This document shows, piece after piece, positions 12,783 to 64,000 of a stretch of 64,000 nucleotides of DNA. Below the pieces are notes generated by a model that saw only the letters and a program-made list of their open reading frames with translations, searched no databases and had not been told where the DNA came from. Numbering within the stretch: position 1 is the stretch's first letter; every line of letters starts with the position of its first letter. Source of the DNA: Lachnospiraceae bacterium. Its GTDB lineage: Bacteria > Bacillota > Clostridia > Lachnospirales > Lachnospiraceae. The DNA lies in assembly GCA_045600945.1 (NCBI GenBank), contig JAZRYX010000027.1:1730-65729 (forward strand), in the 5' to 3' direction. Both the position numbers and the translations under genes were made by a program.

Positions 12783-14052
12783 TATCTATCTCTTTCTGCA
12801 ATGCCGTAAGTGTCTCTCTTCTTAATTCGTTGAGTGAACTTAACGGAATAAAACTTTCCGCGTCCGTATCAACCGTAAGATTATCCCACTCAAAGCATGT
12901 TCCGCCTGTTTTCTCAAGCTGTTTTCTTATATCTTCCTGAGTCAGCGCCCGATTTCTTGCCTTATCCGGTTTTTCCTGTTTTACGGTGCATGGTTTATGT
13001 CCCTGTGTGCTTACCGTAAGTTCGACTTCACGACCCTGTACTATCACTGCATGACCGTTAATGAAAATCTTTTTTACAGTGTTTACGTATTTATCGTCAA
13101 GATATGCATACAGGTCTTCATTTTTTCCGAAACGGTCTTTCCGGTCCTCCCATGCCATCATGTCCCGACCGTTGTGTTCAAAATAATACCCTTCCGTAGA
13201 ACCTCCTCTGTCATAAAGATCTGACAGCATCTTCTTGTCTTCAGGGTCTACTTTATATCCTGATTCACCTTTACTTTCATAAAGGTCTATATATTTTCTC
13301 CAAATCTGTGTAACGCCTGCGGTATACCTCGGAGACTTCATACGTCCCTCGATCTTAAATGAATCTATCCCTGCCTGCGCAAGTTTCGGAAGTATGTCGA
13401 TTGAGCATAAATCTTTTAAGCTGAGCAGTGTCCCTGTCTTTGGTCCGCCGTCTGCATCGTATTCAAGTCTGCAGGGTTGTGCGCATCTTCCTCTGTTTCC
13501 GGATCTGCCACCGATGAGTGAACTCATGAGGCACTGTCCGGAATAGCAGTAGCACAGCGCACCGTGAACAAATGTCTCGACTTCTATCTGCGCCTTATCT
13601 TTTATATTTTTAATCTCTGCAAGTGAAAGTTCTCTTGCTGGTACGACTCGCGTAATTCCGAGCCGTTTAAGATACAGCGCCGAGTCAGCATTTGCCACCG
13701 TCATCTGAGTACTTGCATGTACCGGAAGATCCGGATAACTGTCTCTGAGCACTTTAAGTGCTCCAATATCCTGAACCAGTATCGCATCTACTCCTGCGCA
13801 GTAATACGGCTTTATGTATTCTTTTAATTCTTTAATTTCTCCGGGTTTAAACAGGGTATTGACCGTCATATAAACCTTGCTGCCATATCTGTGTGCATAT
13901 TTGATTCCGTCTATGAACCGGTCTGTTTCGGGATTATCTGCATATGCTCTTGCACCGAATCTCGTTCCGCCCATATATACGGCATCTGCGCCGGCATTTA
14001 CGGCTGCAACCAGGCTCTCGTATGATCCTGCCGGAGCCAAAAGCTCTATCAT
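12757..14052 (-). CDS. U32 family protein (collagenase-like peptidase U32; family of RlhA/TrhP/UbiU-type O2-independent hydroxylases)
   Basis: [29 protein letters not shown]... is the canonical U32 N-terminus. The Cys motif [15 protein letters not shown]...RGRCAQPCR is present. Confidence 0.85.
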
Positions 14053-15059
14053 AGATTCATTTTCTCCTGATATGTTAATCCAAGATGTTTATATGCATTA
14101 TCTGTCGCCACTCTTCCCCGGGGTGTCCTGTTGATGAGGCCGTTCATGAGCAGATATGGTTCATAGACATCTTCGAGTGTTCCCGCATCTTCGGAAAGTG
14201 CTGCGGCCAGTGTGTCGATTCCTACAGGTCCGCCGTTAAACTTCGTGATGATCATGTCCAGATAGTTTCTGTCATTCTGATCAAGCCCGAGCTTATCTAC
14301 ATCCAGTACGTCCAGTGCATAGTCTGCAACTTCTTTCGTGATGACTCCGTCGTATTTAACCTGCGCAAAATCACGAACTCGCTTTAATAATCTGTTTGCA
14401 AGTCTCGGTGTGCCGCGGCTTCTTCTTGCGATTTCGGCCGCACCCGATGCATCAAGCTGTACCTCAAATACTTCTGCGGAACGATTGATGATTTTTTCAA
14501 GTTCCTTCGGTGAGTAGAACTCAAGTTTCTGAACCACTCCGAACCGGTCTCTTAAAGGTGCCGACAAAAGTCCTGCTCTTGTCGTTGCTCCTACGAGGGT
14601 GAACTTCGGAAGCTCCATGTGAATGCTTCTTGCACCTGCTTCTTTGCCGATAAGTATATCTACTGCGAAATCCTCCATGGCCGGATACAGTACTTCTTCA
14701 ACCTGACGGTTGAGTCTGTGTATCTCGTCGATGAAAAGCACATCGCCTTCATTGAGCTTAGTGAGTATCGAAGCCATGTCGCCGGGTTTATCGATTGCGG
14801 GTCCGGATGTGACTTTGATTTTTACTCCCATCTCATTTGCAATGATTCCGGCAAGTGTTGTCTTACCCAGTCCCGGAGGTCCGTAGAATAAGACATGGTC
14901 AAGATTCTCGCCTCTTTTTTTAGCGGCATCGATATATATCTTGAGGTTCTCCTTTATCCTTTCCTGTCCGATGTAATCGGAAAGCTGCTGCGGACGCAGG
15001 TTCACATCGTTTGCACGATCTTCACTTGTTACATCTGTTGTTATTATCGTTCTTCCCAT
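14049..15059 (-). CDS. ruvB: Holliday junction branch migration DNA helicase RuvB
   Basis: [19 protein letters not shown]...[14 protein letters not shown]...LFIDEIHRL; 336 aa. Confidence 0.97.
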
Positions 15060-15646
15060 TACAGACTCCTCAAAGCTTCTTTAAGCATACTTTCCGCATC
15101 CATTCCTTCCGCGGCTATTGCTCTGACCGCGCGTGTTGCCTCTGATCTTGCATAACCGAGATTTACCAGCGCCTCGATTACTTCTGCTGTTTCCGAATTA
15201 ATCGGTGCGGTTTTTCCGCTCGGGATGGCGCCTATGATTTCGTCAGCATTTACCTTATCCTTTAAATCAACTATGACTCTCTGTGCGGTCTTGACTCCTA
15301 TTCCCGGTGCAGTGGAGATCATCTTGTCATCACCGGTGAGTATAGCCATCCTGAGTTCGTCGGGATTCATCGCAGACAGAATCGACAGTGCGCCTTTAGG
15401 GCCTATGCCGCTGACTCCGATGAGCTGTTCAAACATGGCCAGATCCCTTCTGGAATTGAAGCCGTAGAGACTCATAGCATCTTCGCTCACACGGAAATAA
15501 GTGTAGATTTTCACTTCTTCTCCTATGCACGGAAGCTGCTCCATGACCGATGCGGGAACATTGATTTCTATGCCGAGTCCTCCGGATTCGACAACAATCT
15601 TTCCTTCAAGTATTTCGGATAATTCACCCTTAACAAATGATATCAT
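15059..15646 (-). CDS. ruvA: Holliday junction DNA-binding protein RuvA
   Basis: MISFVKGEL...GIEINVP...LYGF...[17 protein letters not shown]...; 195 aa. Its stop overlaps the ruvB start (TAATG). Confidence 0.95.
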
Positions 15647-50443: not shown

Positions 50444-50473
50444 TTGACAAATGCCGGCAAAATAGTCTATAAT
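50444..50473 (+). promoter_or_regulatory. Sigma-A promoter of tRNA-Pro
   Basis: TTGACA-18 nt-TATAAT, 23 nt upstream of the mature tRNA 5' end. Confidence 0.7.
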
Positions 50474-50496: not shown

Positions 50497-50570
50497 CGGG
50501 GTGTGGCTCAGTTTGGTAGAGTACCTGGTTTGGGACCAGGGGGCCGCAGGTTCGAACCCTGTCACCCCGA
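50497..50570 (+). tRNA. tRNA-Pro (anticodon UGG), CCA tail not encoded
   Basis: CGGGGTGTGGCTCAGTTTGGTAGAGTACCTGGTTTGGGACCAGGGGGCCGCAGGTTCGAACCCTGTCACCCCGA. It folds by hand into a cloverleaf with anticodon loop TTTGGGA, and a T7 run follows. Confidence 0.93.
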
Positions 50571-50735: not shown

Positions 50736-51212
50736 ATGTACACCAGCGAATCCTGCAATTTCCGTAACGGTCCGTCTATGAACGCAGGCATAATCAGACA
50801 GATCCCCGCAAATGATCCTATATTTGTGTACCAGATCACTGACGGTTGGGCTGAGATTGACCACGGCAATACTCACGGATATATCAGCACAGATTTCATA
50901 AAGGGTATGGCGCCGGCACCGACTCCTACTCCGGCTCCGTCAGATATATCATGGGCATATCAGTATAATTGGTCAACAGTTTACAACTTCAATGATTACT
51001 GCGATCTCAACCAGGATATTGCAAAAGCTTTCGGCAACAATCCGACCGGTGCATTTGAACACTTCATCAGATTGGGTATGAATGAGGGTCGTCAGGCATC
51101 CAAGTCATGGAATATCCTTTCATATGCTCTGGCAAATCCGCATCTTATCGATAAGTTCGGAAGTTACTATCCTGCATACTATATGTCAGCTTGCAACATT
51201 CCGATTCACTAA
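50736..51212 (+). CDS. SH3b-domain protein lacking a signal peptide (probably an N-terminally truncated remnant)
   Basis: ...CNFRNGPSMNAGIIRQIPANDPIFVYQITDGWAEIDHGNTHGYIS is a bacterial SH3 domain. The domain appears to begin upstream of the first ATG, since the in-frame VNTTT precedes the Met and a stop lies at 50694. A Pro/Thr linker is followed by a C-terminal ...FEHFIRLGMNEGRQAS repeat-type module. Confidence 0.55.
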   Translation: MYTSESCNFRNGPSMNAGIIRQIPANDPIFVYQITDGWAEIDHGNTHGYISTDFIKGMAPAPTPTPAPSDISWAYQYNWSTVYNFNDYCDLNQDIAKAFGNNPTGAFEHFIRLGMNEGRQASKSWNILSYALANPHLIDKFGSYYPAYYMSACNIPIH

Positions 51213-51230: not shown

Positions 51231-51268
51231 AAGAGCTTGCAGCATCAAACCGCAAGCTCTTATTTTTA
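51231..51268 (+). terminator. Bidirectional terminator between the SH3 gene and the end of the minus-strand cluster
   Basis: AAGAGCTTGC-11 nt-GCAAGCTCTT (10-bp perfect stem) followed by ATTTTTATTT, with an A-rich 5' flank. Confidence 0.8.
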
Positions 51269-53185
51269 TTTCATCCGACTGTTAAGTGTCCTTATTCCGC
51301 TTAAATATCCTCCCGGTGTTCCATCAAGTTTATATATGTTTCCTTCCGTAACATGCGCATACAATTTAATATCATCTATATAACACTGCGCCGTCGCCGA
51401 TATCGATATGTTTCCTTTGCACTGGCTTCCGAAGTCAATGTCTATTGTCTGCGAACCCGGGGCGAAGCCTGCACTCTTGCTGACTCCTCCGACTGTTACG
51501 GTAACGGTTCCGCTTTCCGATGAATCTACTTTAAGCTGCGCTTTTGTGCTGTAGGAACTATTGAATCCTCTGCCTGTCAGATCCTGGGAAATCACTGCTC
51601 CCAGATTCATATGCATTTTTTTATTGCCGTTTATATCTTCAACAGATGCACCGCTTACACTCCAGCCTTTTGTATCTCTTCCGAACTCGGGATTGTAAAT
51701 GATGCTGTCGGCATAGTCCTTATATGTCCATAAGCCGTACCCTGTGGTCTGTGCGTTGAATACGCCTGCCATAGCCGCCAGATAGGCATTTACATCTGAA
51801 ACCCTGGCAAGATTTTCATATCCCGGAGTCGTCTCCATATACAGGAACTGGTCTATGAATACCGGCTTACCCGCTGCCTGTACTCTTGCGATAAGCGAGG
51901 AACTCATTGCTGCCGCATTTGCCGGCGGTATAACTGTTCCGTCCGGAAATCCCATAGCAGCCGTAACTATTGTTGACGAATACGGTGCATTACCGCATCC
52001 GAATGTTTTTACATGCGAGTATGGCTTTCCGTCGCTTGTCATATCATCAAAGAGTCTGCACTCCATCGACAGATTCGGAAATACCTGCTGTGTCTGCGTG
52101 AGAAGCTCCATCAGCTTGTTATCCATATCTTCGTATCCGTAACATGTAGATGCAAGTGATGACCAGAAATCCTCCCAAGTAATAAAACCTCCGATAAAGT
52201 TCGGATGAGGGGCGCATATCTGATAAACCCTCTGGGCGTATTTAAGCCATGCTGTCCTTTCGTTTCCATTTGTGAACAGACGGTTGAATCTGTTCATCGA
52301 TGAGCTTTGATCTGCATAGTCCCATGTGTATCCGAGCCTGATCATAGCCTGAAGTCCGCATGTTCTGGCTCTGCCCAGCATTTCATTAAGCTTTGTAAGT
52401 GCGGTCTCATCAAAACCTGTTATCGGATCCGGCTGTATCTCCCTCCAGGGAACGCAGAATATTACGGTATTAAATCCGTCCGCTTTTATCTTTGCGAAAT
52501 CAGCTTCTGCCTGCGCATGCTCGCTGTTGAGAAAATTAACAGGCCACTCGTTTCCGAAATATGTGACTGCCTTTGTCTTGGCAAGAGTTTCATCTTTTCT
52601 TCCTACTATCATAAAACTCATAAGCAGGAAAAATGCTATCATTTTAAGACTTATTTTCATCTTCGGTTTTATCCTTTTTGTGTATAACAGTCTGACTTTA
52701 TCAAGTAATATATCATATATGAGCATAACTAAAATCATGATTACATAATATACCGTATTAATTACCATACTCACGGACTTAAACTCGGCAAGAACCGCCT
52801 GCAGCTTCAGTACGTAGCAAAGCACAAAATACATTAAACCGATAGCCACAGAAAATACCGCCACTTTTACCGCAATACAGAGCGGTTTTGGCTTTATTTT
52901 CTCAAGTATCGGTTTCAGCATGGGATAGTATCCTACGAAAATGTAAAAAGCAGCCGCTTCTTTATCCGCCAGCAGTAAAACGGAAAGTAATGATACCGTG
53001 ATCCAGACCATCCATCCCCATTTGACATTTATCTGGTCGATAACCGGTATAAGGAATATACCGGCAAAAAGCGGTGCTGCATATGTCAGCACCGGTATAA
53101 GGCTGCTAAGCGATAAGATGGCCACACTGAGTGCGGCCATCAAACCACTGAATGCAATTTTAAAGCTTAACTTAATAGTACTCAC
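51266..53185 (-). CDS. Fusion ORF: N-terminal ~175-aa polytopic membrane module, then an internal signal-peptide-like segment, a TIM-barrel glycosidase-like domain and a CBM-like C-terminal domain
   Basis: 639 aa with a GTG start overlapping the upstream stop by 14 nt. Residues 176-200 read MKISLKMIAFFLLMSFMIVGRKDETLA (signal-like). DGFNTVIFCVPWREIQPDP resembles GH5/GH42-type barrels. The C-terminus ...GWSVSGASVEDINGN...CYIDDIKLY is CBM4/9-like. Confidence 0.6.
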   Translation of the reverse strand: MSTIKLSFKIAFSGLMAALSVAILSLSSLIPVLTYAAPLFAGIFLIPVIDQINVKWGWMVWITVSLLSVLLLADKEAAAFYIFVGYYPMLKPILEKIKPKPLCIAVKVAVFSVAIGLMYFVLCYVLKLQAVLAEFKSVSMVINTVYYVIMILVMLIYDILLDKVRLLYTKRIKPKMKISLKMIAFFLLMSFMIVGRKDETLAKTKAVTYFGNEWPVNFLNSEHAQAEADFAKIKADGFNTVIFCVPWREIQPDPITGFDETALTKLNEMLGRARTCGLQAMIRLGYTWDYADQSSSMNRFNRLFTNGNERTAWLKYAQRVYQICAPHPNFIGGFITWEDFWSSLASTCYGYEDMDNKLMELLTQTQQVFPNLSMECRLFDDMTSDGKPYSHVKTFGCGNAPYSSTIVTAAMGFPDGTVIPPANAAAMSSSLIARVQAAGKPVFIDQFLYMETTPGYENLARVSDVNAYLAAMAGVFNAQTTGYGLWTYKDYADSIIYNPEFGRDTKGWSVSGASVEDINGNKKMHMNLGAVISQDLTGRGFNSSYSTKAQLKVDSSESGTVTVTVGGVSKSAGFAPGSQTIDIDFGSQCKGNISISATAQCYIDDIKLYAHVTEGNIYKLDGTPGGYLSGIRTLNSRMK

Positions 53186-54380
53186 CCGGTACTACAAGTA
53201 CCAGATCGGCGATCGGGAAGCTTGCGCACGGATGTATCTCACCGCTCTCTTTATCTGCCCAACGTCTGCCGTCGGTTTCTTCAGGTATGAAGACTTCACC
53301 CGAGATGAGTCTTGAACGGCACCATCCGCACTCACCGCTGCGGCAGCGTGAAGGAGCTTTGATTCCCGCTCTTTCGATTGCTACAAGCAGAGGCTCGTTG
53401 GCATCGGCATCAATAACTTTCTCTGTATCACCCTGACGAACAGTTACCTTAAATACTTTATCTTTCTTATCCTGCGGATATCCCGGCTGTTCCCAGACTT
53501 TCTTGGTCGCTCCGAGAAGCTCACGGCGTACATGCTTTCTGTCGAGTCCGAGTTTCTCAACCTCGCCTGCCGCAAATCTGTACATCGCCTCAGGTCCGCA
53601 GATAAATACGCTGTAATCATCAGACGGTGCATATTTCCTGATAAGTTCTGCCGTGATAAATCCGTTTTCATATCCTTCCTTTGTCTCATCTGAAAGAACG
53701 TGAATGACTTTTACCTTATCACATACTGATGTGATGGCATCAAGTTCTGCCTTGAAAAGAATCGCTTTTTCTGTCTTACTTCCAAAAAGAATGGTAAGAC
53801 TAAAATCTTCGATTCCGTCACGGATAGCATATGCCATTGAAAGGAACGGTGTGATTCCCGAACCGCCGGCAAGAGCTACTACGTTCTTTGAATCACGAAG
53901 TGACTCATAGTAGAACTGTCCCTGTCCGTCTGATCCGATAACTTCATCACCAATCTTGAAATTATCCAGCATCCAATCAGCTGCAAATCCGCCCGGATTT
54001 TTCTTAACGGTAATTGCGATTTTTCCTTCAAGCGCCCACTTCGGTGAAGATGAGATTGAATACGGGCGGGTTACAAAGCTGTTCCCGATCGGAAGTTTTA
54101 AAGAGATGTACTGACCTGCCCTGAAATATGCTGCAGGTTTTCCGTCTGCTCTCTTTAATACAAATGTCTTGGCATCTGCATCTTCATGATCCATTATCTC
54201 TGTGATAATGAACTTCTGATAATCAGGATGCATAGCCTTAGCGAAGTTATTAATAGGATAATCAGCCGTAATTTCTTTTGCGGGTGCCGCATCTATTGCC
54301 TGCTGACGTGTCTTACTGAGGTTTGCAAATTTAAGCATATCAAGAAGTCCGATAAGACCTACTTTAACATTAAGTGCCAT
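53172..54380 (-). CDS. FNR-type FAD/NAD(P)-binding reductase with a C-terminal plant-type 2Fe-2S ferredoxin domain
   Basis: RPYSISSSP (FAD RxYS motif), VVALAGGSGITP (NAD-binding motif), and C-terminal CRSGECGWCRSRLISGEV...HPCASF (2Fe-2S Cys pattern). Confidence 0.8.
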   Translation of the reverse strand: MALNVKVGLIGLLDMLKFANLSKTRQQAIDAAPAKEITADYPINNFAKAMHPDYQKFIITEIMDHEDADAKTFVLKRADGKPAAYFRAGQYISLKLPIGNSFVTRPYSISSSPKWALEGKIAITVKKNPGGFAADWMLDNFKIGDEVIGSDGQGQFYYESLRDSKNVVALAGGSGITPFLSMAYAIRDGIEDFSLTILFGSKTEKAILFKAELDAITSVCDKVKVIHVLSDETKEGYENGFITAELIRKYAPSDDYSVFICGPEAMYRFAAGEVEKLGLDRKHVRRELLGATKKVWEQPGYPQDKKDKVFKVTVRQGDTEKVIDADANEPLLVAIERAGIKAPSRCRSGECGWCRSRLISGEVFIPEETDGRRWADKESGEIHPCASFPIADLVLVVPGEYY

Positions 54381-55921
54381 TATTTGTTACCTCCTTCCTT
54401 AAGCTCGCTGCACGCCATGGCAGCACACATATCTCCGTTGATCCATGTTGATGAATATCCGTCGCCTCTGAATGAAGCTGCGCCGATATGGCGAAGTCCC
54501 TTGATCGGGAACTCCTCAGGAATCATCATCATACGAGCAAGCATCGCGTCCCATCCTCCGAGGTCATAACCGTAGGTTGATCCCTCAGGTGTTCCGAGAT
54601 ATCTTGCAAATGTCATAGGTGTTGCTATCTCAACCTCTTCGATATAAGGCTCGATGTCAACGCCGTATTTCTCTTTCATTGTCGTAAGACACTTCTTTGC
54701 GAGTTTATCTTTAAGCTTATAGTAGTCTTCCGGTTTCACGTTGTTCCAGTCATCCGGTCCATACATTGATGTAAAGCTGCATACGCAGGTTCCTTCCGGT
54801 GAGAAATCGGGAATAAGCGTGTTGTAGCAAAGAAGGATAGTAAACTCGTTTGTATCTATATGCTTGAAGCTCTCAAACTCTTTACGTGTATCGCATGTTC
54901 CCGGGAAGAATACGGTATAGTCTTTGATGCCAAGTTCTTCAGCTGTCTTGTTAAGTGCGAAATAGCAAACGAACATTCTTGCCGAGTAATTATGATTACG
55001 AGCCGCCGAAAGTTTCTTCTCTCTTTCCGGTACAAGTTCCTTCGGCATCATCTTTGCATATATGATATCAGGGTTAATGTTGGCAAGAACCTGCTTGCAC
55101 TCTACCGTGCCGAGGCTTGTCTTAACTCCGCAGATATGATCTCCGTCAAACAGGAACTCTTCCGCCCTGCAGTTAAACCAGGCTTCTCCGCCAAGCTCAT
55201 AGAATCTGTTCATGAATGTCATAGAGATCTCATGAGATGTATGATGCGGGATAACCGCTTTTCTTGTGATATACATATCGAGCATGTTGCCGAAATGAAG
55301 GAAGTTGATCTCATCAAGCGGGACTCCTAAGTAACACCAGTATACTGAAAGGATATCTATGGCTTTCTGCGGGAGCTTGATTGCTTTCTTCATAACATCA
55401 AGTGCCGGATAGCCGCAGGTTCTGAGTGTATTCGGGAAATGCTCCTGCATATACTTGGAATCGTTTGGTGTTCCGTCGTTCATATACTCAACGGCTGCTC
55501 TTACTTCTTCGAAAAGATCAAACAAAGTGTTCATCTTCTCTCTTGTTCCCGGAACATACTCCTCCATCTTATCAATGAAAGCTTCACGTCCTGTCGGCAT
55601 AGAAATGTCCATAGGTGTTCCGTCGGAATATTTGGAAATACAGCGATAACAATCCGGAACCGTGATCCAGTCAACATTGATACCGTTTCTTTCCATCATA
55701 CGTCTTACATGACCCTTGTTATCATCCGGACCGAAGTCACAGATTTCATGAACACTTGGGTCGAATTCAAACCTACCTCTTCTGAAGCTGGACGCACATC
55801 CACCCGGAAGGTTATGCTGATCGATCAAAAGTGTCTTTTTTCCTTCACAGACAGCTTTTACTGCAGCACTAAGTCCGGCGTTTCCTGCTCCAACCACAAC
55901 TACATCGTACTTTGTTGCCAT
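54380..55921 (-). CDS. CrtI/phytoene-desaturase-family NAD(P)/FAD-dependent oxidoreductase
   Basis: The N-terminus YDVVVVGAGNAGLSAAVKAVCEGKKTLLIDQHNLPGGCASSF is the GxGxxG-type amine-oxidase/CrtI dinucleotide fold. Length is 513 aa. Confidence 0.75.
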   Translation of the reverse strand: MATKYDVVVVGAGNAGLSAAVKAVCEGKKTLLIDQHNLPGGCASSFRRGRFEFDPSVHEICDFGPDDNKGHVRRMMERNGINVDWITVPDCYRCISKYSDGTPMDISMPTGREAFIDKMEEYVPGTREKMNTLFDLFEEVRAAVEYMNDGTPNDSKYMQEHFPNTLRTCGYPALDVMKKAIKLPQKAIDILSVYWCYLGVPLDEINFLHFGNMLDMYITRKAVIPHHTSHEISMTFMNRFYELGGEAWFNCRAEEFLFDGDHICGVKTSLGTVECKQVLANINPDIIYAKMMPKELVPEREKKLSAARNHNYSARMFVCYFALNKTAEELGIKDYTVFFPGTCDTRKEFESFKHIDTNEFTILLCYNTLIPDFSPEGTCVCSFTSMYGPDDWNNVKPEDYYKLKDKLAKKCLTTMKEKYGVDIEPYIEEVEIATPMTFARYLGTPEGSTYGYDLGGWDAMLARMMMIPEEFPIKGLRHIGAASFRGDGYSSTWINGDMCAAMACSELKEGGNK

Positions 55922-57369
55922 AAAGCCTCTCCTTTCTTTAATATCTCGATTTTTCTTTCATAGAATTTCAAAGAATCATTATTTTTATAATACTCTTCAC
56001 AACCGTATCTTGCAATGAACCTTGAAGAATAATATCCTATCGTAAGTTCGGTAACCAGTATGAGCATCTCCTGTCCTTCACCGAAAACTTCTTCGACAAA
56101 CTTGAAAAGATTGGAAAGTCTTTTACCTGCCACAACAGCGTCTGATTTCATCTTTTCAAGCATCTCATCATAATCCGATTTGATATGTGCAAAATCCGAC
56201 TGTGATGTTATATGTCTGTTTAAGAACTTAAGAACCGTCTCATACTTGTCTCTTTTATCTGACGAAAGCACTCCCATCTTACGGAATCTGTGATAAAGCA
56301 CTTCCTCCTCTTCAGTCGCGATTATAAGATCTTTTCCTTCTTTAACTTCTTTCAGTATCTTGAGAAGTTCGGTTATTACATCTTCCTGTTTCATAACAGC
56401 GGTTATGCCGGCATAAACACTATCCATCAGAAGTCCGAGAAGGCTTATTCTTTCGTCAAATCCCGCCTCTTTTGCCCGGTTCTTGATTTCCGCGGGTGCA
56501 TTTCCTGAAAGTATCTCCTCAATCTTATAATCGGATTTATATTTGTTATACAGGTCATAATAGGTTGCAAAGTCTTCTGCGATTTCGGGGTTCTGTATAT
56601 ACTGTTCTATCAGTTTTTTATCAACCGGTATCGCCCTTTGTTCATACAGTTTGATAATATCACTTAAGTCTATCCAGCCTCGTGCCGTAACGAAATTTTT
56701 ACCGTCTACGGTCTCTTCGATCTTATAGAAATATTCTTTTCTGATATCAAGATATGTAAGTATCGCTGCATGTGTTTCGTGCTTATATGCGTATGCTTTC
56801 CATGCATCATAGTCCGGTTCTATCTCGACTTTTTTCAGTCTGTCCCATGTCACTATATCGAACTCTCTTGCACTTCTGTTATAGGCGATCGGGTTTCCGG
56901 CCGTGACTACTATCCATCCGTCGGGAACTTTGTGACGACCGAAAGTCTTAAACTGCAGAAACTGAAGCATGGTCGGTGTAAGTGTTTCCGATGCACAGTT
57001 TACTTCATCAAGAAACAGTATCCCTTCTTTTAGTCCGGTTTCCTCCATGCAATCATAAACCGATGAGATAATCTCGCTCATGGTATATTCGGAAACATCA
57101 TATTCATCTTCCCCGAACTTCTTGTGAACTATCTTCGGAAGTCCCAGTGCGGACTGCCTCGTATGATGAGTGATGGAGTATGAAACCAGTCCCAGTCCGA
57201 GTTCCTCCGCAACCTGTCTGACGATGGCTGTCTTGCCTATTCCGGGAGGACCCATAAGAAACACGGGTCTTAACTGCGAAGGCTCCAGCACATAATTACC
57301 GTTGGCATCACGTGTGGAGTAGGCCTTTATAGTATTAAATACCTGTTCTTTTGCTTCGGCTATATTCAT
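55900..57369 (-). CDS. AAA+ ATPase (AAA_5/MoxR-like core) with a long helical C-terminal extension
   Basis: Walker A FLMGPPGIGKTAIV, Walker B ILFLDEVNCA, VVTAGNP; 489 aa. Its start overlaps the upstream stop (ATGA). Confidence 0.8.
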   Translation of the reverse strand: MNIAEAKEQVFNTIKAYSTRDANGNYVLEPSQLRPVFLMGPPGIGKTAIVRQVAEELGLGLVSYSITHHTRQSALGLPKIVHKKFGEDEYDVSEYTMSEIISSVYDCMEETGLKEGILFLDEVNCASETLTPTMLQFLQFKTFGRHKVPDGWIVVTAGNPIAYNRSAREFDIVTWDRLKKVEIEPDYDAWKAYAYKHETHAAILTYLDIRKEYFYKIEETVDGKNFVTARGWIDLSDIIKLYEQRAIPVDKKLIEQYIQNPEIAEDFATYYDLYNKYKSDYKIEEILSGNAPAEIKNRAKEAGFDERISLLGLLMDSVYAGITAVMKQEDVITELLKILKEVKEGKDLIIATEEEEVLYHRFRKMGVLSSDKRDKYETVLKFLNRHITSQSDFAHIKSDYDEMLEKMKSDAVVAGKRLSNLFKFVEEVFGEGQEMLILVTELTIGYYSSRFIARYGCEEYYKNNDSLKFYERKIEILKKGEALWQQSTM

Positions 57370-58040
57370 AGTTCGAAATCTCCCATGTTAACGGTTTCTT
57401 TATTTCCTGCTTCAAGCAGCAATGCAACTGCCTCGGTCTCTTTTCTGATATTGGCCTCTTCGATATATTGTCCGATATTTTCCTTTCTCAGAAGTTTTTC
57501 TGAAACCAATCCGCTGAGCGCTGCTGTATTATTGAACTTAAGTATGCGTTCCATTATCAATGCTTCATTTTCTTTGATGAAAGTCTCGGCATGCAGGCGC
57601 GTTTTTTCATTGTGTTTCTCAGGACATGTGCACCAGAGCAAAGTATAAAGCAGTTCCTCAGGCGGATTGCATACCTGCGGATATCCGGCCGCCACATATC
57701 CCTCTAAAAGATTTCTGCAGTCCCCAAAGGCATCGGTTCCAATAAAAGTATTATCATTCGGAATCTCTATATATTTAAGATCCGGACATGAGAAAAATGC
57801 TTTCTCGTCTATAGTCTCAATCGACTTAGGGATAATGACTTTCTCCAGTCCGCTTTCCCCGAATGCTTCTTCCCTTATAGTTTTAAGTGTTTGCGGAAGC
57901 TTTACTGATTTGAGGTTAATGCACCCGAAAAACGCTACTTCACCTATATCTTCAATTCCCTCGGGAATATCTATGTGAGTTAATTCTTCGTTTTGAGCGT
58001 ATGCACCCGGCTCTATTTTTTTATCTGCCGAATCTGTCAT
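57366..58040 (-). CDS. BspA-type leucine-rich-repeat protein without a signal peptide
   Basis: Repeats IPEGIEDIGEVAFFGCINLKSVKLPQTLKTIREEAFGESGLEKVIIPKSIETIDEKAFFSCPDLKYIEIP. There is no N-terminal hydrophobic segment. Length is 224 aa. Confidence 0.75.
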   Translation of the reverse strand: MTDSADKKIEPGAYAQNEELTHIDIPEGIEDIGEVAFFGCINLKSVKLPQTLKTIREEAFGESGLEKVIIPKSIETIDEKAFFSCPDLKYIEIPNDNTFIGTDAFGDCRNLLEGYVAAGYPQVCNPPEELLYTLLWCTCPEKHNEKTRLHAETFIKENEALIMERILKFNNTAALSGLVSEKLLRKENIGQYIEEANIRKETEAVALLLEAGNKETVNMGDFEL

Positions 58041-59346
58041 TTAGTATATCTTCCTCCGGGAGATAAAGTTTCATCGCCCATTCCGGTGTCCATACATCAC
58101 TGAGCCCGTCATCATGAATGATAAAGGCCACATCATAATCCGGTTTCTCACCCGGGAATACTCCCTTGCCGTCGGTGAAATACAAAACACCTCTTAAATC
58201 TGTCAGCTTTTTCTGAGTTACAAGTTCATCAACGTAAGCAAAGAGCGGCCTGAAATCAGTCTCTCCGAGACCTTTTATCTCCATCTTTTTAAGATAGTCA
58301 TCAAAATCTTCCTTGCATGTTATATAAGCAACATCCTGCACCTTGTCATCACATTGGATAATATACATATTGACTTTGGTGCTGAAGTTTTCCTGTTTTG
58401 CAAGTATATCATGCGTATGCTGGACGAACTTCTGAACCACTTCCCCCTCTACGCTGCCGGACGTATCGATTGCGATAACGAAATCACGAATCTTATTCTG
58501 ATCTCTGTATTCGAGCGGTTCAATCAGCGGTATGTTACCGTATAGTTCAAGTCCGTATGTGTAGTAATTGTTGTCGAACTCTTCATCCGACAGTCTCATA
58601 ACCTCACCGTGGACTCCGAAATGTTTCAGAAACTCCGTATAATCATGCCTCGCTTTATTTATGTCCCTCAGGTTTTGAGTAAGTGCATTCTCATCACCCA
58701 TTATGACTTCAAGTTCAGTCTCCATGCGTTTGGAGATTATTTCCCACAGTTCATTTAAGTCTATGTCGGCCTCGGCAGCATTGGCAGAACGCCCTGTTCC
58801 GAACCATATGCTATGATCATCACCGACAAACGGTACTCTGTTACCCAGCAGTTCACTGTCGGGAACTTTCTTATCAATGAGCCATCTGTAGATCCGTTCT
58901 GCGGTAAGTGCCGGCAATTCTTCTTTGAGCATTGCCGTCGTAGCCTGCTGCGCACTTGATCTTCTGCAATCCGTCACCGGCTTTGAAAGTTCATTTATCG
59001 CGTTCTCCACCGCTACATCACATGCAAGATTCCATGCGTTTTTGTTTATATCTTTTCCGACATAATAGTGTCTGAAAACACAATGAAGCAGGCTGTGCAA
59101 TATGTTTCTCGTAACAACTGTCTGTTCATTCTGATAAAGGCTGATGACAAACCACGGGCTGTATAGTATGTTTCTCCCGTCAGTTGCAAATGTTGCCTGC
59201 ATCTCCGGGACAAATCTGATATTGGCTATTGCCCTGTCCATATATCTAAGATTCACCAGGAGCTGATTTCTTGAAAGCACCAGAATATCAGCCGCAAGTT
59301 CCTGCGCCTTTGAAAGATTGTCTTCCTTTTTATCTCCGGTACTCAT
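58021..59346 (-). CDS. VWA-domain protein with an N-terminal zincin-like (DUF2201_N-like) domain
   Basis: MIDAS motif VIAIDTSGSVEG. The N-terminal helix ...NILHSLLHCVFRHYY carries HSLLH in place of HExxH. Length is 441 aa. Confidence 0.7.
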   Translation of the reverse strand: MSTGDKKEDNLSKAQELAADILVLSRNQLLVNLRYMDRAIANIRFVPEMQATFATDGRNILYSPWFVISLYQNEQTVVTRNILHSLLHCVFRHYYVGKDINKNAWNLACDVAVENAINELSKPVTDCRRSSAQQATTAMLKEELPALTAERIYRWLIDKKVPDSELLGNRVPFVGDDHSIWFGTGRSANAAEADIDLNELWEIISKRMETELEVIMGDENALTQNLRDINKARHDYTEFLKHFGVHGEVMRLSDEEFDNNYYTYGLELYGNIPLIEPLEYRDQNKIRDFVIAIDTSGSVEGEVVQKFVQHTHDILAKQENFSTKVNMYIIQCDDKVQDVAYITCKEDFDDYLKKMEIKGLGETDFRPLFAYVDELVTQKKLTDLRGVLYFTDGKGVFPGEKPDYDVAFIIHDDGLSDVWTPEWAMKLYLPEEDILNDRFGR

Positions 59347-59349
59347 CCG

Positions 59350-59520
59350 TCACATCTGATGCCTTACAACCTGATATTCATCTCCGTTTCTGTAAAACGG
59401 ACAATCTTTATAGTGACTTAACTGCAGTCGATAAACTTCATCTTCATCCATGTCCACGCTGCAGTAATACTCTTCATATTCCTCATCCCATGCGTAGTAC
59501 GCACATGTATCACAACTCAT
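59350..59520 (-). CDS. Small acidic 4-Cys protein (56 aa), not in the supplied ORF track because it is shorter than 60 aa
   Basis: Translated by hand as MSCDTCAYYAWDEEYEEYYCSVDMDEDEVYRLQLSHYKDCPFYRNGDEYQVVRHQM. Its ATG overlaps the upstream transporter stop (TAATG), and its stop lies 3 nt before the VWA gene ATG. Confidence 0.6.
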   Translation of the reverse strand: MSCDTCAYYAWDEEYEEYYCSVDMDEDEVYRLQLSHYKDCPFYRNGDEYQVVRHQM

Positions 59521-61331
59521 TATTCCGTACGCTCCGCCATGCCCAACGCATTGAAATAATAATCATGCTTTGTTTTATATTGTTCATTAAAGAACTCATC
59601 ATTACCCTGATGAAGCTCATGTATATAATCATGATGAGACTGCATAACATGTTCATCAGTAAGTGCGAGTGTATATATACCTATATTGGAACATTGATCT
59701 GCAATACGTTCTATATTCACCAGTGCATCAAGGAATATGAGTCCCGAGTACATATTGCAGCGCCCTTCACGAAGTCTGCGCGTGTGGTTTGCCTTAAGCA
59801 CGCTTACAAGATCATCTACCACTTCCTCAACCGGCTCGATTTTTCTTGCGGCCTCGAAATCAGAGTTACTGAATGCCTCATATGTATTTGAAAGAATGTC
59901 TCTTAATGCGTTCGATAAAACCAGCAGTTCGTTCTGAGCCTGTGGTGTGAAGCTTGCTCCTTTTTCATGGATCTCGGAAGCATTTTCCGTAAGATTCACT
60001 GCCAGATCTCCGATTCTCTCGAACTCGCTGAAACACTGCATATAATAATTCAGGATATCATTGTTCCTGCCGTTGGGAACATGAGTTCCGAGTCCGATAA
60101 GGTAGTTATCTACAGCATCGGCCAGGCGGTCTATGCTGTCTTCGTTTTGATTGATTACATCTATTGCTTCCTGACTGAACTCGTCGAATTCATTCATTGC
60201 ATTGACTACTGCTTCCTGCGCCATCTTTGCCATAGCCTTTATTGCTTCCCTTGCTGAATTAAGCGCGAGGGCGGGTGATGCGTACAGCTTCTCATCCAGC
60301 ATAGCGATTTCATTATCGATGCTTGTTCCGATTTTCTTGTCATCGGGAATGATTTTCATAGAAAGCTTCTCATATACGCCTGCAAGCGGCATAAGAAGAA
60401 GCGCGCAGGTTAAGTTAAATACCGTATGCGTATTTGCGATAAGACCGGAGTTCATGGTGGCATTCCATATTCCGTCCAGCGCACCGACTTTGTGAAGTAT
60501 CGTAACTCCTAAAAATACCAGAATGGTCTCGCAAAGATTGAACATAATGTGGATGGCACCTGTTCTTTTGGCATCCGCCTTGGCACCTATTGAACAAACC
60601 ATCGCCGTCGTTACACAATCGCCCAGATAAACACCGATGATAATCGGATAAGTCGCCTTAAATGTCAGCGCACCTGTGATTGAAAATGCCTGCAATATAC
60701 CGATGGTAGCTGACGATGACTGAAGAACAAATGCAACAGCGACACCGACGAGATATGCAAGGAATGGATTGTCTCCGAACTTTACGAAAAGATTTGTGAA
60801 TGCCGGATCCTGTGAAAGCGGCTCAACAGCACTTGTCATCGTAAGAAGTCCCGTAAACAGGATGCCGAAACCCATTGCTACAGTGCCGATGGTCTTAACC
60901 TTTGCCTTATTGTTATTAAGAAACATAATGCAAATGATACCGATGACCGCGGCAATCGGAGCAAGTGTGGATGGTTTGAAGATGTTAAGCCATGATGATC
61001 CGGAAGCATCTATATCAAGAAGCCTTATAATCTGGCCGGTAATTGTAGTACCGACATTGGCTCCGAGTATGATTCCGACTGACTGATGCAGCGTAAGTAT
61101 ACCTGCACCTACAAGACCTGATGTTATGACTATCGTCGCTGTTGAAGACTGTATGATAGCAGTCATCAGCATACCGACAAGAAAACCTTTGATGGGGTTG
61201 TTTGTTACTTTTTCAAGAACTGATTTAAGAGTATCTGTAGATCCCTCTTTCAGCCCGTCGCCCATGACCCTCATTCCGTACAGGAAGAGGGCCAGTCCGC
61301 CGAGTAGAGTTATGATATTAAAAATCGACAT
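59520..61331 (-). CDS. Na/Pi cotransporter family protein with C-terminal PhoU-like domains
   Basis: 603 aa. N-terminal membrane domain LLGGLALFLYGMRVMGDGLK...IQSSTATIVI (duplicated NptA repeat: ...LQSSSATIGI). The C-terminal helical region is PhoU-like. Confidence 0.85.
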   Translation of the reverse strand: MSIFNIITLLGGLALFLYGMRVMGDGLKEGSTDTLKSVLEKVTNNPIKGFLVGMLMTAIIQSSTATIVITSGLVGAGILTLHQSVGIILGANVGTTITGQIIRLLDIDASGSSWLNIFKPSTLAPIAAVIGIICIMFLNNNKAKVKTIGTVAMGFGILFTGLLTMTSAVEPLSQDPAFTNLFVKFGDNPFLAYLVGVAVAFVLQSSSATIGILQAFSITGALTFKATYPIIIGVYLGDCVTTAMVCSIGAKADAKRTGAIHIMFNLCETILVFLGVTILHKVGALDGIWNATMNSGLIANTHTVFNLTCALLLMPLAGVYEKLSMKIIPDDKKIGTSIDNEIAMLDEKLYASPALALNSAREAIKAMAKMAQEAVVNAMNEFDEFSQEAIDVINQNEDSIDRLADAVDNYLIGLGTHVPNGRNNDILNYYMQCFSEFERIGDLAVNLTENASEIHEKGASFTPQAQNELLVLSNALRDILSNTYEAFSNSDFEAARKIEPVEEVVDDLVSVLKANHTRRLREGRCNMYSGLIFLDALVNIERIADQCSNIGIYTLALTDEHVMQSHHDYIHELHQGNDEFFNEQYKTKHDYYFNALGMAERTE

Positions 61332-61453
61332 ATTTTGCGATGTTGCCTTTCATGCTTTCTTTATAACAAACTTCCAACTTCATCCGAATGCATTACACCA
61401 AAAAAGTCAAAACAAATGAGCCGGCCTTATACATGATGAATCAACCACATTGA

Positions 61454-62636
61454 TTAATTTATAAACTTCAAAAACTTGCGTGCAATGCGTTTCATGGAAG
61501 AAAACAATTTATTTACCGTCCTGCACAACCTGCGACCTGCAGCTTTAAAAAAACTTGACTCTTTATATTTAGTCATACAATAAAAGGCCAAAGATCCTGT
61601 ATAATCTGACACTACATTTTTTATCCGTTTTTGATTATCTTTGATATAGTACTTATAATCTTTAAAATTTTCACGCCAATATAATCTGTTATTTATACTT
61701 CTATCTTCAAAATAGTCCTTAAGATTTTGACTGACATAGTAAAAAAACGGTCCTTCCCACGGAAAGTCTTTATTCACAAAAACCGATAAATGACAATCTA
61801 CAATTGTAATACTTTGATTCCATAAAGTGTTGACCGTCATCTGATAACCCGTCAAATAGTTCGCCCGCGGAATCAATATTACACTCGCATCATTCTCTAA
61901 AAAAATCGAATTATGAGAACATGAGCCAATCGTCGAGGCAAAGCATTTACAATTTAAAAGTATATTGAGCTGCTCAGAAAACGTATATTTTTCCGGAGCA
62001 ATTACTTTAAAATCCTTATTGGAAAAATATTTTTCTAATTTGTCTTCTCCATAAGAGTTTGTTTTCCATTGTGATGCAGTAAAATACACTTTATCATATC
62101 CTGTTTCTTTTTTATTCTTCCGGCCATAATCTCTTATTTCATCAATCAACCACTTGTACTCTTCGTTTTGATACAAAATCTCGTTTTACAAAAAGAAAAA
62201 TCAAATCCTTGTAGGCTAAAGTTTCCTTTAAGTGCAAATCTAACAATCTATGTTTTGAAGTGATCTCCGTTAAAAATTTGGTTTCCAAAATATTCTCCTC
62301 GTCTAAATAAATGAATATATGACTTTTAAAGTCCTGATAAAAAAGGATTTCATTATATACAGGTAGATTCGGCAGCCATTTACAATTGTCTTTTCCCTTG
62401 GTTCTTCAATACCCACATAGAACGTCTGCAGCAATTCAGACTTCCACAAATCATCTCCGTCCAAGTATATTTTACCATAAAAATATCAAAAAAAAAGAGT
62501 CAGGCTGATGCCCAACGAAGTAAAGGAATTGTCAGTTATAAAAAAACGGAATGGTCCCAAAGATATGATTTCAAAATTAATGTTAAGACATTCTACATCC
62601 TTAACTGATTTATTATGAACTTCTTGAATAATTAAT
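61454..62636 (-). pseudogene. Decayed glycosyltransferase 61/DUF563-like gene in three pieces
   Basis: The 240-aa piece (61454-62176, TTG-initiated in the track) has ...FASTIGSCSHNSIFL..., typical of the GT61 C-terminal half. Upstream, a ~105-codon piece is in another frame. A further ~48-codon piece has no start codon and is separated by an in-frame TGA at the end of a T9 run (plus-strand A9 at 62486-62494). Confidence 0.55.
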
Positions 62637-63049
62637 CCTCAACAGCTTGCGGACTGCATTTTGCAGTACCTAACGGACACTGATGCATCTCAGGGCATAC
62701 ACTTTGCAGGGCAAAACGTACACCCTAAAATAATTTAATTCGTTACTAAATTGACGACTTTATTATTACCGTGAAGTGCTTTGTCGCCCTCTCACGATTG
62801 CATTTGAAGATACTTCATCATTCAGTATCATGGATTTACAGCTTTTGGACTTACGTTGAGAGACCATAAAACTATCGTCTAATTCCATAAGTAAATTTAT
62901 TCCTCCTTTTTTTAAAAAACTACTGATTTCTTTTCTTTTGAATAAAAAAATGAAATAATATTCAAGTTATTAAACTTTCACTCATATTGTGTGCTTCTTT
63001 CTCCTTAATCAACGAAAATGCGTTGAGATGTTTATTTCTATCTGCAGTT

Positions 63050-63691
63050 TTAGATAAATGGGTAAATGCTACCCCTTTTATAATCTGCTCCTAAAATATC
63101 TACTTCACCATCGACAATTTTTAATCTATGCTCATCAATTATTTTTACCAATCTTTCCAGCATATCTATCTGTAAATCCAAAATCGAATCATAATCGTGT
63201 GTCTCCAAGAACGCTTTCAAAGGTATAATGCTTTGCATAATTATTTTTCCATTATCCATACTATCATCAATAAAGTGAGCAGTATTTCCAACCAACAATG
63301 TGTTTCCATGGTCAACAGCTTGATCTATTGCTCTAATTCCCGGAAACATTGGCAACAAAGATGGATGAAAATTAATTAATCGATAATTATATTTTTCTAG
63401 TAATTTACCGCTCAATAAATGTTCCCCAAATGAAAACAAGTAATCAATATTATTTTTTTCTAATTGTTTTAGAATAAAATTCGAAATTAAGAGGTTTTTT
63501 TTCTTACGCGTTCCAACAAGTTGACAGTCATCAATAACCTCTAAAGTCAAATTATTACTCTCTATTAATTTTTTCAAATTACAATCTACTTGCGCATCTG
63601 ATACCACCAATATCCAGTCCTTTGTACATAGTTTCTGTATTGCTTTCAACAATCTATCAGATTTTCCCGAAATATAAAAAGCATATCGCAT
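63050..63691 (-). CDS. Formyltransferase (PurN/Fmt-like catalytic domain; likely sugar N-formyltransferase given the context)
   Basis: ...RLINFHPSLLPMFPGIRAIDQA...GNTAHFIDDSMDNGKIIMQ has the formyl-transferase N/H/D motifs. AAGGAG lies 10 nt upstream of the ATG. Confidence 0.8.
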   Translation of the reverse strand: MRYAFYISGKSDRLLKAIQKLCTKDWILVVSDAQVDCNLKKLIESNNLTLEVIDDCQLVGTRKKKNLLISNFILKQLEKNNIDYLFSFGEHLLSGKLLEKYNYRLINFHPSLLPMFPGIRAIDQAVDHGNTLLVGNTAHFIDDSMDNGKIIMQSIIPLKAFLETHDYDSILDLQIDMLERLVKIIDEHRLKIVDGEVDILGADYKRGSIYPFI

Positions 63692-63971
63692 AACTCATTT
63701 TCTCCTTGCGCCACAAGTAATAGTACTCTAATATCTGTTATCAATGGTTCCCCATCTAAGCTGAAAATAAGCCCATTTTTTGAAATTCTCAAAGCGTTCA
63801 ACTTCACATAAAAATCCTCCACTGGTTCTCTATATGATTTTTCATCAAGCTTTTTTTTATCCTAGAAAGCTTTGATACAATACCACCATTTTGGGTGAAT
63901 TTAGCAATAATACCTGTCCTTTTCTTTTCACAGTTATTATTGATAATAACTATATTAATCATGGGTGTCAT
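63646..63971 (-). pseudogene. Small ORF apparently split by a frameshift at an A8 tract
   Basis: Frame 1 reads MTPMINIVIINNNCEKKRTGIIAKFTQNGGIVSKLSRIKK, then stops shortly after the A8 run (plus-strand T8 at 63851-63858). Adding one A would continue it as KLDEKSYREPVEDFYVKLNALRISKNGLIFSLDGEPLITDIRVLLLVAQGENE.... Confidence 0.3.
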
Positions 63972-64000
63972 AGGATTTGCAACATCACGCCACCATTTAT

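Follow-up and report, generated by a model that had tools for sequence, protein, structure and literature searches.

Do eight genes packed head to tail, with almost no DNA between them, constitute one functional module? The question is raised by a 10-kb minus-strand array in a stretch of DNA from a Lachnospiraceae bacterium (contig JAZRYX010000027.1, assembly GCA_045600945.1, positions 1,730 to 65,729), the whole of which, 64,000 nucleotides, is referred to here as the window. Read in the direction of its genes, the array encodes a Na/Pi cotransporter (NaPi), a small Cys-rich DUF6472 protein, a von Willebrand factor A (VWA) protein (V), a leucine-rich repeat (LRR) protein (L), an AAA+ ATPase (A), a CrtI-like flavoprotein (C), an FNR-type reductase with a 2Fe-2S domain (F), and a membrane protein fused to a glycosidase-like barrel. 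An earlier note on this DNA had proposed that the eight genes form a single undescribed module, in which the AAA+ and VWA proteins would act on the CrtI-like flavoenzyme and its reductase as their client. The eight open reading frames (ORFs) and all seven junctions described there were reproduced from an ORF listing and by direct reading, and every domain call stands against Pfam and NCBIfam. The comparisons reported below indicate that the array is probably an evolutionary composite of four independent units rather than one functional module. Unit 1 would be the Na/Pi-PhoU transporter with the DUF6472 gene behind it; unit 2, a ternary system of MoxR-class AAA+ ATPase, DUF2201-type VWA protein and repeat protein (V, L and A, hereafter the triad); unit 3, a two-component flavoenzyme made of the CrtI-like FAD protein and its NAD(P)H-FAD-[2Fe-2S] reductase; and unit 4, a membrane-anchored GH5-like protein. 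These four independent units would have come to lie head to tail in the array.

The evidence for this composite origin comes from gene neighbourhoods. Using A as the anchor, 80 loci from distinct species, each with 10-kb flanks and drawn from at least 540 matches, were searched by tblastn with all eight proteins. The VWA gene adjoins the AAA gene in 77 of the 80, and an LRR gene is present in about half. CrtI and FNR genes occur within 10 kb of the triad in two species loci (L001 and L026) and are absent from the other 78, and no NaPi, DUF6472 or membrane gene was found in the 10-kb flanks of any of the 80. Clustering of ORFs in 81 loci recovers a co-directional V-L-A or V-A-L set that recurs across Clostridia, places a CrtI-FNR pair in three of these loci, and reveals no recurrent fourth gene family beside the triad. 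The VWA, LRR and AAA genes are a conserved gene set, as had been suspected, for which no match to a described system was found; our literature searches likewise returned no published description of the triad.

Around this conserved set the remaining genes erode stepwise as the AAA protein diverges. All eight genes are present in L081 and L083, at 87-95% AAA identity. The locus at 75% identity (L085) reads GlyRS-NaPi-DUF6472-V-L-A-C-F, GlyRS being glycyl-tRNA synthetase, with the membrane gene absent. At 71% (L086), V-L-A-C-F lies behind phage remnants, at 69% (L001) the same five genes are joined by a second, divergently oriented CrtI-like gene, and at 55% (L026) the order is C-F-V-L-A. The membrane gene is thus confined to L081 and L083 and is gone below about 87% AAA identity; NaPi and DUF6472 are gone below about 75%, no relative under that value having NaPi next to the triad; and the five-gene sets at 69-71% identity have different flanks. 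The eight genes are therefore not a single co-conserved module, since the full set exists only at 87% AAA identity or above. The narrower expectation of a syntenic VWA-LRR-AAA-CrtI-FNR core holds inside a single clade, to AAA identities as low as about 55%, and fails as a general rule, the pair being missing from 78 of the 80 triad loci.

The reciprocal comparison gives the same picture. In 41 metagenome loci anchored on a CrtI-like relative at 28-87% identity, FNR lies immediately downstream of CrtI in 39, and the other two are contig ends. The CrtI-like protein and the reductase are thus the genuine, dedicated pair that had been predicted. The triad occurs in three of the 41, two belonging to the window's clade (L088 and L089) and one with a convergent arrangement (L094); the remaining 38 lack it, some of them with 8 kb of sequence on either side. 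In a tree of the AAA proteins all CrtI-linked loci form one clade, which contains three arrangements, V-L-A-C-F, C-F-V-L-A (L026) and convergent C-F/A-L-V (L094). In a tree of the CrtI-like proteins the linked loci are scattered among unlinked ones with 8 kb of flanking sequence per side. The simplest reading of these trees is a single old juxtaposition of CrtI-FNR and triad that survived three rearrangements in some lineages and was lost in others. The tree pattern argues strongly against a general link and lends slight support to a clade-specific one.

These data bear directly on the proposed client relationship. The general statement that AAA+ and VWA proteins act on a CrtI-like/FNR client is not supported by the reciprocal counts (78 of 80 triad loci without the pair, 38 of 41 pair loci without the triad), and the behaviour of DUF6472 and the terminator and -10 box of close relatives, both described below, remove further support for it. 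A clade-restricted form of the idea, in which the triad matures the CrtI-like protein and the FNR/2Fe-2S reductase, loads cofactor into them or remodels them, as NorQ/NorD, CbbQ/CbbO and CoxD/CoxE do for their partners, has more in its favour. V-L-A-C-F persists over the range of 95% to 69% AAA identity despite changes in both flanks, the A/CrtI junction overlaps by 22 nt in most V-L-A-C-F loci, the adjacency outlived rearrangement, and L001 carries its additional CrtI-like gene beside V. Against it stand the 78 triad loci without CrtI-FNR within 10 kb and three CrtI-FNR loci on sister branches (L098, L100 and L107) without a triad in 8 kb of sequence to either side. The pair, moreover, often has a GntR regulator of its own, and the triad lacks a conserved client-type neighbour anywhere and has a VWA protein of the DUF2201 type, not the NorD/CoxE type. 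We therefore consider the clade-restricted client model unlikely, and return to the composite of independent units as the reading that best accounts for the neighbourhoods.

Reading from NaPi to the membrane gene, the junction offsets are -1, +3, -20, -4, -22, -1 and -14 nt. The NaPi/DUF6472 and CrtI/FNR junctions are 1-nt TAATG overlaps and the L/A junction is a 4-nt ATGA overlap; DUF6472 and V are separated by a 3-nt gap; V/L, A/CrtI and FNR/membrane gene overlap by 20, 22 and 14 nt, the last with a GTG start. Comparison of the window with L081 and L083 supports the GTG start, as the changes in this frame are three synonymous and one conservative, although automatic gene callers chose a downstream ATG in the relatives.

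The 3-nt DUF6472-V junction appears to be a recent, lineage-specific scar. In relatives at 94%, 87% and 75% identity (L081, L083 and L085), the two genes are separated by a spacer of 67-90 nt, all of which is missing from the window. Straight after the DUF6472 stop codon the spacer forms a hairpin with a U-run (-16.9, -21.1 and -34.4 kcal/mol, z -2.7, -5.3 and -3.4, for L081, L083 and L085), whose stem sequence differs in L085. The hairpin is followed by a conserved box, TGATATAAT or TGGTATAAT, a -10 element of the form TGnTATAAT (L081 8005-8023; L083 2210-2228; L085 about 7780-7796). Our consensus promoter and terminator scanner missed these hairpins, which contain a bulge or an interrupted T-run, and folding revealed them. 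Because the box ends about 11 nt before the V start with no Shine-Dalgarno sequence between them in any of the three relatives, the V-L-A-C-F transcript of these relatives may be leaderless or nearly so. The presence of hairpin and box in the relatives, and their absence here, suggests that NaPi-DUF6472 and V-L-A-C-F are transcribed separately there and were fused in the window's lineage, where a deletion of about 67 nt would have taken out the terminator and the -10 box between them.

The small gene at this junction is itself instructive. DUF6472 (Pfam match 7e-25) has no constant partner: elsewhere its homologues lie 5-10 nt behind, or overlap, genes for DUF4317, SDF symporter or FtsH proteins, or stand alone before PFOR. 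This tight placement behind unrelated genes means that a coupled junction is no evidence of shared function in these genomes. DUF6472 behaves like a small gene reliant on upstream translation. In loci anchored on it (L177-L184), a Cys-rich acidic gene of 56-72 aa is found repeatedly 0-10 nt from the 3' ends of unrelated upstream genes (FtsH, SDF symporter, DUF4317 and NaPi). The transporter ahead of it matches Pfam Na_Pi_cotrans (2e-56) and PhoU (2.7e-20) and NCBIfam Na_Pi_symport.

Composite ancestry does not preclude joint transcription today. Elsewhere in the window, 13 of 37 co-directional gene pairs have junctions of 5 nt or less, so that by our own arithmetic the chance of seven tight junctions in a row is about 6e-4 (0.35^7); this improbability makes co-transcription likely, and in this strain the 10 kb are most likely transcribed as one unit. 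A second minus-strand run at 9755-15646, six genes with five consecutive overlaps (-4, -4, -26, -4 and -1), indicates that overlap-coupled arrays are a general feature of the genome. The terminator that closes the array, already recognized in the earlier note, is real (13-bp stem followed by a T-run at 51261-51231, -20.6 kcal/mol, z -5.9). A second hairpin with a T-run lies at 53094-53072 on the minus strand, inside the 5' end of the membrane gene where the first transmembrane (TM) helices are encoded and 80-100 nt past the FNR stop codon. It has 8 bp, including six GC pairs, its wider fold reaches -17.5 kcal/mol (z -3.2), and in L083 the stem appears to be preserved by the exchange of a G:C for an A:T pair. 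The hairpin may act as a partial terminator that closes the CrtI-FNR unit.

Such elements lend some credit to the opposite view, that adjacency is accidental and the array is no operon, internal promoters and partial terminators yielding several transcripts. The terminator and -10 box between DUF6472 and the VWA gene in relatives, the 53094-53072 hairpin, and gaps of 72-167 nt at other junctions in relatives all agree with it. In the window, however, the junctions are six overlaps and one 3-nt gap, and a promoter scan of the cluster found 31 sites against 34.4 +/- 5.8 in shuffled sequence, that is, no excess. Strong Shine-Dalgarno sequences precede CrtI, FNR and L here, whereas V and the membrane gene have none and would depend on coupling to upstream translation. 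We judge several transcripts very unlikely in this strain. An Rfam scan found no riboswitch or leader inside the cluster. The features of the array that emerge from these analyses, a single probable transcription unit of composite origin, are collected below.

Table 1. Features of the eight-gene array, with positions in the window.
Feature	Position	Strand	Size or basis
Na/Pi cotransporter + PhoU (unit 1a)	59520-61331	-	603 aa, ~8 TM helices
DUF6472 small Cys-rich acidic protein, Cys56 (unit 1b)	59350-59520	-	56 aa
Probable deletion scar, DUF6472-V junction	59347-59349	-	alignment with L081, L083, L085
V, DUF2201-type VWA protein (triad)	58021-59346	-	Pfam DUF2201_N + DUF2201
L, BspA-type LRR protein (triad)	57366-58040	-	224 aa, Pfam LRR_5
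Helical unit of L, aa 151-211	57408-57590	-	iterative hidden Markov model
C-terminal tail of L, NMGDFEL-COOH	57369-57389	-	tail pattern counts
A, MoxR-class AAA+ ATPase (triad)	55900-57369	-	Pfam AAA, AAA_5
CrtI/CrtISO-superfamily FAD flavoprotein (unit 3a)	54380-55921	-	513 aa
FNR-type FAD/NAD(P)H reductase + C-terminal plant-type 2Fe-2S (unit 3b)	53172-54380	-	402 aa
Membrane protein fused to GH5-like barrel (unit 4)	51266-53185	-	hydropathy, weak Pfam match
Intrinsic terminator ending array	51231-51261	-	stem + T-run

The broadly conserved part of the array is the triad. It was matched at 540 or more sites among species-representative genomes, its hosts being gut Clostridia and Eggerthellaceae. 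For A, over 8000 homologues score E<1e-5, and most of them belong to anaerobes of gut and rumen. A comprises an AAA+ ATPase (aa 1 to ~290) and a family-specific C-terminal helical bundle (aa ~290-489). Pfam AAA (38.6 bits) and AAA_5 (31.6 bits) both exceed their cut-offs, bpMoxR, aligned over part of its profile, is borderline at 27.3 bits against a cut-off of 27.0, and the Walker A (GPPGIGKT) and Walker B (LFLDE) motifs are at least 90% conserved in 73 relatives. Sequence matches in the Protein Data Bank (PDB) reach the P-loop level only, the top one being Midasin through its P-loop region alone. An AlphaFold2 model (mean pLDDT 79, pTM 0.79) was more informative: its best Foldseek matches, confined to the ATPase half, are the NorQ chains of NorQ-NorD complexes (E 7e-5, probability 1.0), and the confidently modelled C-terminal bundle had no Foldseek match. 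Low-confidence residues 68-76 and 125-131 form loops bearing on the MoxR-characteristic helix 2 insert.

V matches Pfam DUF2201_N (2e-10) and the VWA-like DUF2201 (8e-13), not VWA_CoxE, and has no sequence match in the PDB. Its metal ion-dependent adhesion site (MIDAS) is complete (D294-T-S-G-S298, T363 and D392), and the MIDAS residues (D294-T-S-x-S298, T363 and D392) are invariant in 69 relatives. The N-terminal zincin-like domain keeps three His residues (H84-x3-H88-x4-H93) that are invariant in the same relatives, but the HExxH motif is absent: the window protein reads H-S-L-L-H, the Glu is missing in 65 of the 69, and its position is filled by I, M, V, T or S across the family. With the His residues kept and the catalytic Glu missing, the domain is probably metal-binding or scaffolding and not a protease.

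The third component is by far the most variable. L matches Pfam LRR_5 (1.3e-27), and its family is present in 61 of the 81 loci, co-directional and placed between V and A or just after A. These proteins occur in 1-5 copies of 177-1282 aa and contain LRR, ankyrin or DUF4132 parts, the window L being a short form; in five triad loci the third component is a DUF4132 protein. No signal peptide was found in the L proteins beside V or A, nor a TM helix in the window L, and the L proteins are predicted to be cytoplasmic. What unites them is an ankyrin-like helical unit of about 64 residues, detected with a hidden Markov model built iteratively from the C-terminal half of the window L. The unit is present in third-component proteins at 58 of the 81 loci, among them the partners in Eggerthellaceae and proteins that have DUF4132 or ankyrin repeats but no LRRs. 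A C-terminal helical unit is followed by an acidic linker and then by a hydrophobic-x-Leu-COOH tail. This C-terminus ends 43 of the 53 proteins that carry the unit C-terminally, compared with 8% of other ORFs; the narrower pattern [FW]xL is found in 20/53 and 13/1085. In an independent set from a library of 1.84 billion proteins, 18 of 21 end in acidic residues followed by F-x-L (for example EEFEL, EEFDL and EEFAL) and two more in the related L-x-L, making 20 of 21 in all. The window L ends in NMGDFEL. A single-sequence search with the L C-terminus returned only 33 close representatives, too few to size the third-component family.

Background for a mechanism comes from characterized MoxR-vWA systems, whose MIDAS site takes hold of an extended peptide, after which the bound protein is remodelled by the MoxR motor (PMC7159879). 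By analogy with that peptide capture, we tentatively propose that A is a hexameric MoxR-type motor and V its VWA adaptor, the V MIDAS binding the acidic tail (E-E-F-x-L-COOH) that lies beyond the ankyrin-like unit in L. The A hexamer would then act on the V-L complex, ATP hydrolysis remodelling or releasing L or whatever its surface holds, and the variable LRR, ankyrin or DUF4132 surface of L would select the target.

Midasin/Rea1 uses its MIDAS to bind the ubiquitin-like (UBL) domains of Ytm1 and Rsa4, and the integrin I-domain binds an acidic residue of its ligand. Both provide a model for docking in which an acidic residue of the partner completes the MIDAS coordination and, for Midasin, the AAA+ motor then pulls. 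The Midasin ligand is a folded UBL domain, whereas the ligand proposed for V is a short C-terminal tail.

The closest characterized counterparts, NorQ/NorD, CbbQ/CbbO and CoxD/CoxE, likewise pair an AAA+ gene with a VWA protein having an intact MIDAS. NorQ is the best structural match of A, and the logic of peptide capture and remodelling is common to both (PMC7159879). Unlike NorD and CoxE, V belongs to the DUF2201 type and has a degenerate zincin domain at its N-terminus; unlike the NorQ, CbbQ and CoxD systems, A continues into an additional helical bundle of about 200 aa at its C-terminus; and unlike all three systems, the triad has no conserved client gene nearby in 81 loci and has instead a dedicated repeat-protein third component. 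The uncharacterized E. coli cluster yehI-yehL-yehM-yehP-yehQ (DUF4132, MoxR, DUF5682, VWA_CoxE and SWIM) also unites MoxR, VWA and DUF4132 proteins. Its Pfam families differ, however, and the triad has no DUF5682 or SWIM partner; identity of the two systems was rejected, BLASTP giving E 0.9 for A against YehL and E 3.6 for V against YehP.

The organization of the triad, with MoxR, vWA and a variable, repeat-built third protein, is shared with the MoxR-vWA ternary conflict systems (Kaur et al., 2020, PMC7159879). Four classes of these are described in that article, VMAP, iSTAND, FtsH and beta-propeller; LRR is mentioned there once, and none of the four is LRR-type. The triad could thus be an immune or conflict system of this ternary type, in which a fast-evolving LRR or ankyrin protein senses the invader and the AAA+ and VWA proteins set the activation threshold. 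The high variability of the third component in copy number, length and repeat type beside an A protein that is 50-70% identical across families fits such a role, as do the few representatives returned with the L C-terminus, the varying flanking genes, the strong PHROG relatives of A (PHROG 1297, 2e-39) and V (PHROG 1314, 5e-41), the borderline bpMoxR score and the phage remnants that adjoin L086. The differences are substantial, however. Third components of the triad are of the LRR_5, ankyrin or DUF4132 type and have a helical unit and EEFxL tail of their own, and no VMAP, iSTAND, FtsH or beta-propeller partner, as set out in PMC7159879, accompanies the triad. Effector and EAD domains are lacking too, the sole candidate, the zincin-like domain of V, being without its catalytic Glu. 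The triad is found in gut Clostridia and Eggerthellaceae, often among housekeeping genes, the ternary conflict systems in multicellular bacteria. A PADLOC scan of seven proteins gave no match for V or L and for A only IetA at ~4e-5 over 55 P-loop residues, and only four full-length relatives were found in 2.9 million viral contigs. An immune role is accordingly unlikely. A phage-borne triad was rejected as well, its full-length relatives being limited to a few unannotated virome contigs and four IMG/VR contigs among those 2.9 million; plasmids yielded only distant MoxR proteins.

The mechanism of tail capture and remodelling, which we propose for the triad, can be stated more broadly. To the four described classes of MoxR-vWA ternary system the triad would add a fifth, widespread in gut Clostridia and Eggerthellaceae and so far undescribed, in which LRR, ankyrin and DUF4132 adaptors swap on a conserved motor through the helical unit and an EEFxL-COOH tail read by the MIDAS, and in which the repeat surfaces choose targets, whether cellular clients or invaders and, in the window's clade, possibly the CrtI-like/FNR pair. 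This wider proposal is doubtful.

Several points weigh against our account of the array and the triad. The adjacency of triad and pair was kept through three arrangements within one AAA clade, which accident alone does not predict. Many of the metagenome contigs are short, so that at some loci an absent triad carries no information. The reading that all eight genes are co-transcribed is based only on their spacing, and the hairpin and T-run at 53094-53072 could partly insulate the membrane gene. Finally, 28 third-component proteins bear the helical unit internally, without the tail, and the docking of tail to MIDAS is argued by analogy.

The second conserved element of the array is the CrtI-FNR pair. 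The CrtI-like protein matches NCBIfam carot_isom over its full length (2.8e-29) with 102 bits against a cut-off of 587, and crtI_fam with 58 against 238; its closest PDB entries are CrtD and CrtI, at ~1e-7. It belongs to the phytoene desaturase/carotenoid isomerase group at the superfamily level only. The reductase contains Pfam FAD_binding_6 (68-157), NAD_binding_1 (170-270) and Fer2 (319-388), an order of FAD, NAD and C-terminal Fer2 shared with phthalate dioxygenase reductase and PaaE. In the PDB it comes closest to the benzoate and phthalate dioxygenase reductases, and it reaches no NCBIfam equivalog cut-off. Both proteins differ from the CrtI/CrtISO/RetSat and reductase models in missing the equivalog cut-offs widely, and they come from anaerobes in which no carotenoid or oxygenase pathway lies nearby. 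In 10 of the CrtI-anchored loci the pair is flanked by a GntR/FadR-type regulator. Given the domain order of the reductase and the CrtISO-like flavoprotein, electrons would pass from NAD(P)H to FAD, to the 2Fe-2S cluster and on to the flavin of the CrtI-like protein, which would reduce or desaturate a C-C bond in a substrate that is probably lipophilic or a carboxylate; we see this mechanism as evenly balanced between right and wrong. A literature search on this point found no description of a CrtI-family enzyme with a dedicated FNR/2Fe-2S partner. The additional CrtI-like paralogue of L001 (CACZAM010000021.1, ~5-8 kb) encodes 516 aa, lies divergently just upstream of V, and groups with unlinked copies in the CrtI tree.

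The membrane gene encodes about six TM helices (aa 1-195), a GH5-like barrel and a beta-rich C-terminal region. Its Pfam Cellulase match (4.6e-4) is under the cut-off, and GH5 matches in the PDB are sub-threshold only. Past this gene, L081 (16.4-21.5 kb) and L083 (10.5-15.7 kb) carry a sortase and two proteins of ~750-820 aa without Pfam domains. The window has instead the terminator and opposite-strand genes, including an SH3_3 protein (50736-51212). A tRNA gene on the strand opposite the cluster, just beyond the terminator (50497-50570, plus strand, Rfam 65 bits), is preceded by a perfect 12/12 sigma-70 promoter, TTGACA-18-TATAAT (50444-50473, plus strand).

At the other end of the array, GC content falls from ~43% to ~31% directly upstream of NaPi (61400-64000). 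This low-GC stretch contains an ORF at 61454-62176 with a TTG start and a C-terminal Glyco_transf_61 match only, and a formyltransferase-like ORF at 63050-63691. Glycyl-tRNA synthetase is found directly upstream of NaPi in L081 and L085, and this, together with the GC drop, suggests that the window carries a low-GC insertion or replacement there. In L086 and L087, phage-type genes (Phage_Mu_F, holin and ELLD, 5.6-7.9 kb) lie directly upstream of V-L-A-C-F, an arrangement that suggests a prophage remnant or insertion hotspot. The species concerned is common, its AAA cluster having 327 member sequences.

Overlapping junctions in compact Clostridial genomes thus do not define functional modules, and one of those described here is, by comparison with close relatives, probably the scar of a recent deletion. 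The conserved and apparently undescribed content of the array would be a MoxR-VWA ternary variant with a tail-bearing repeat partner, lying beside an independent CrtI-FNR pair. The latter would constitute a distinct, widely conserved two-component flavoenzyme of anaerobes. In the former, a conserved tail on a hypervariable partner leads to a testable binding hypothesis for how MoxR/VWA machines may choose their substrates.

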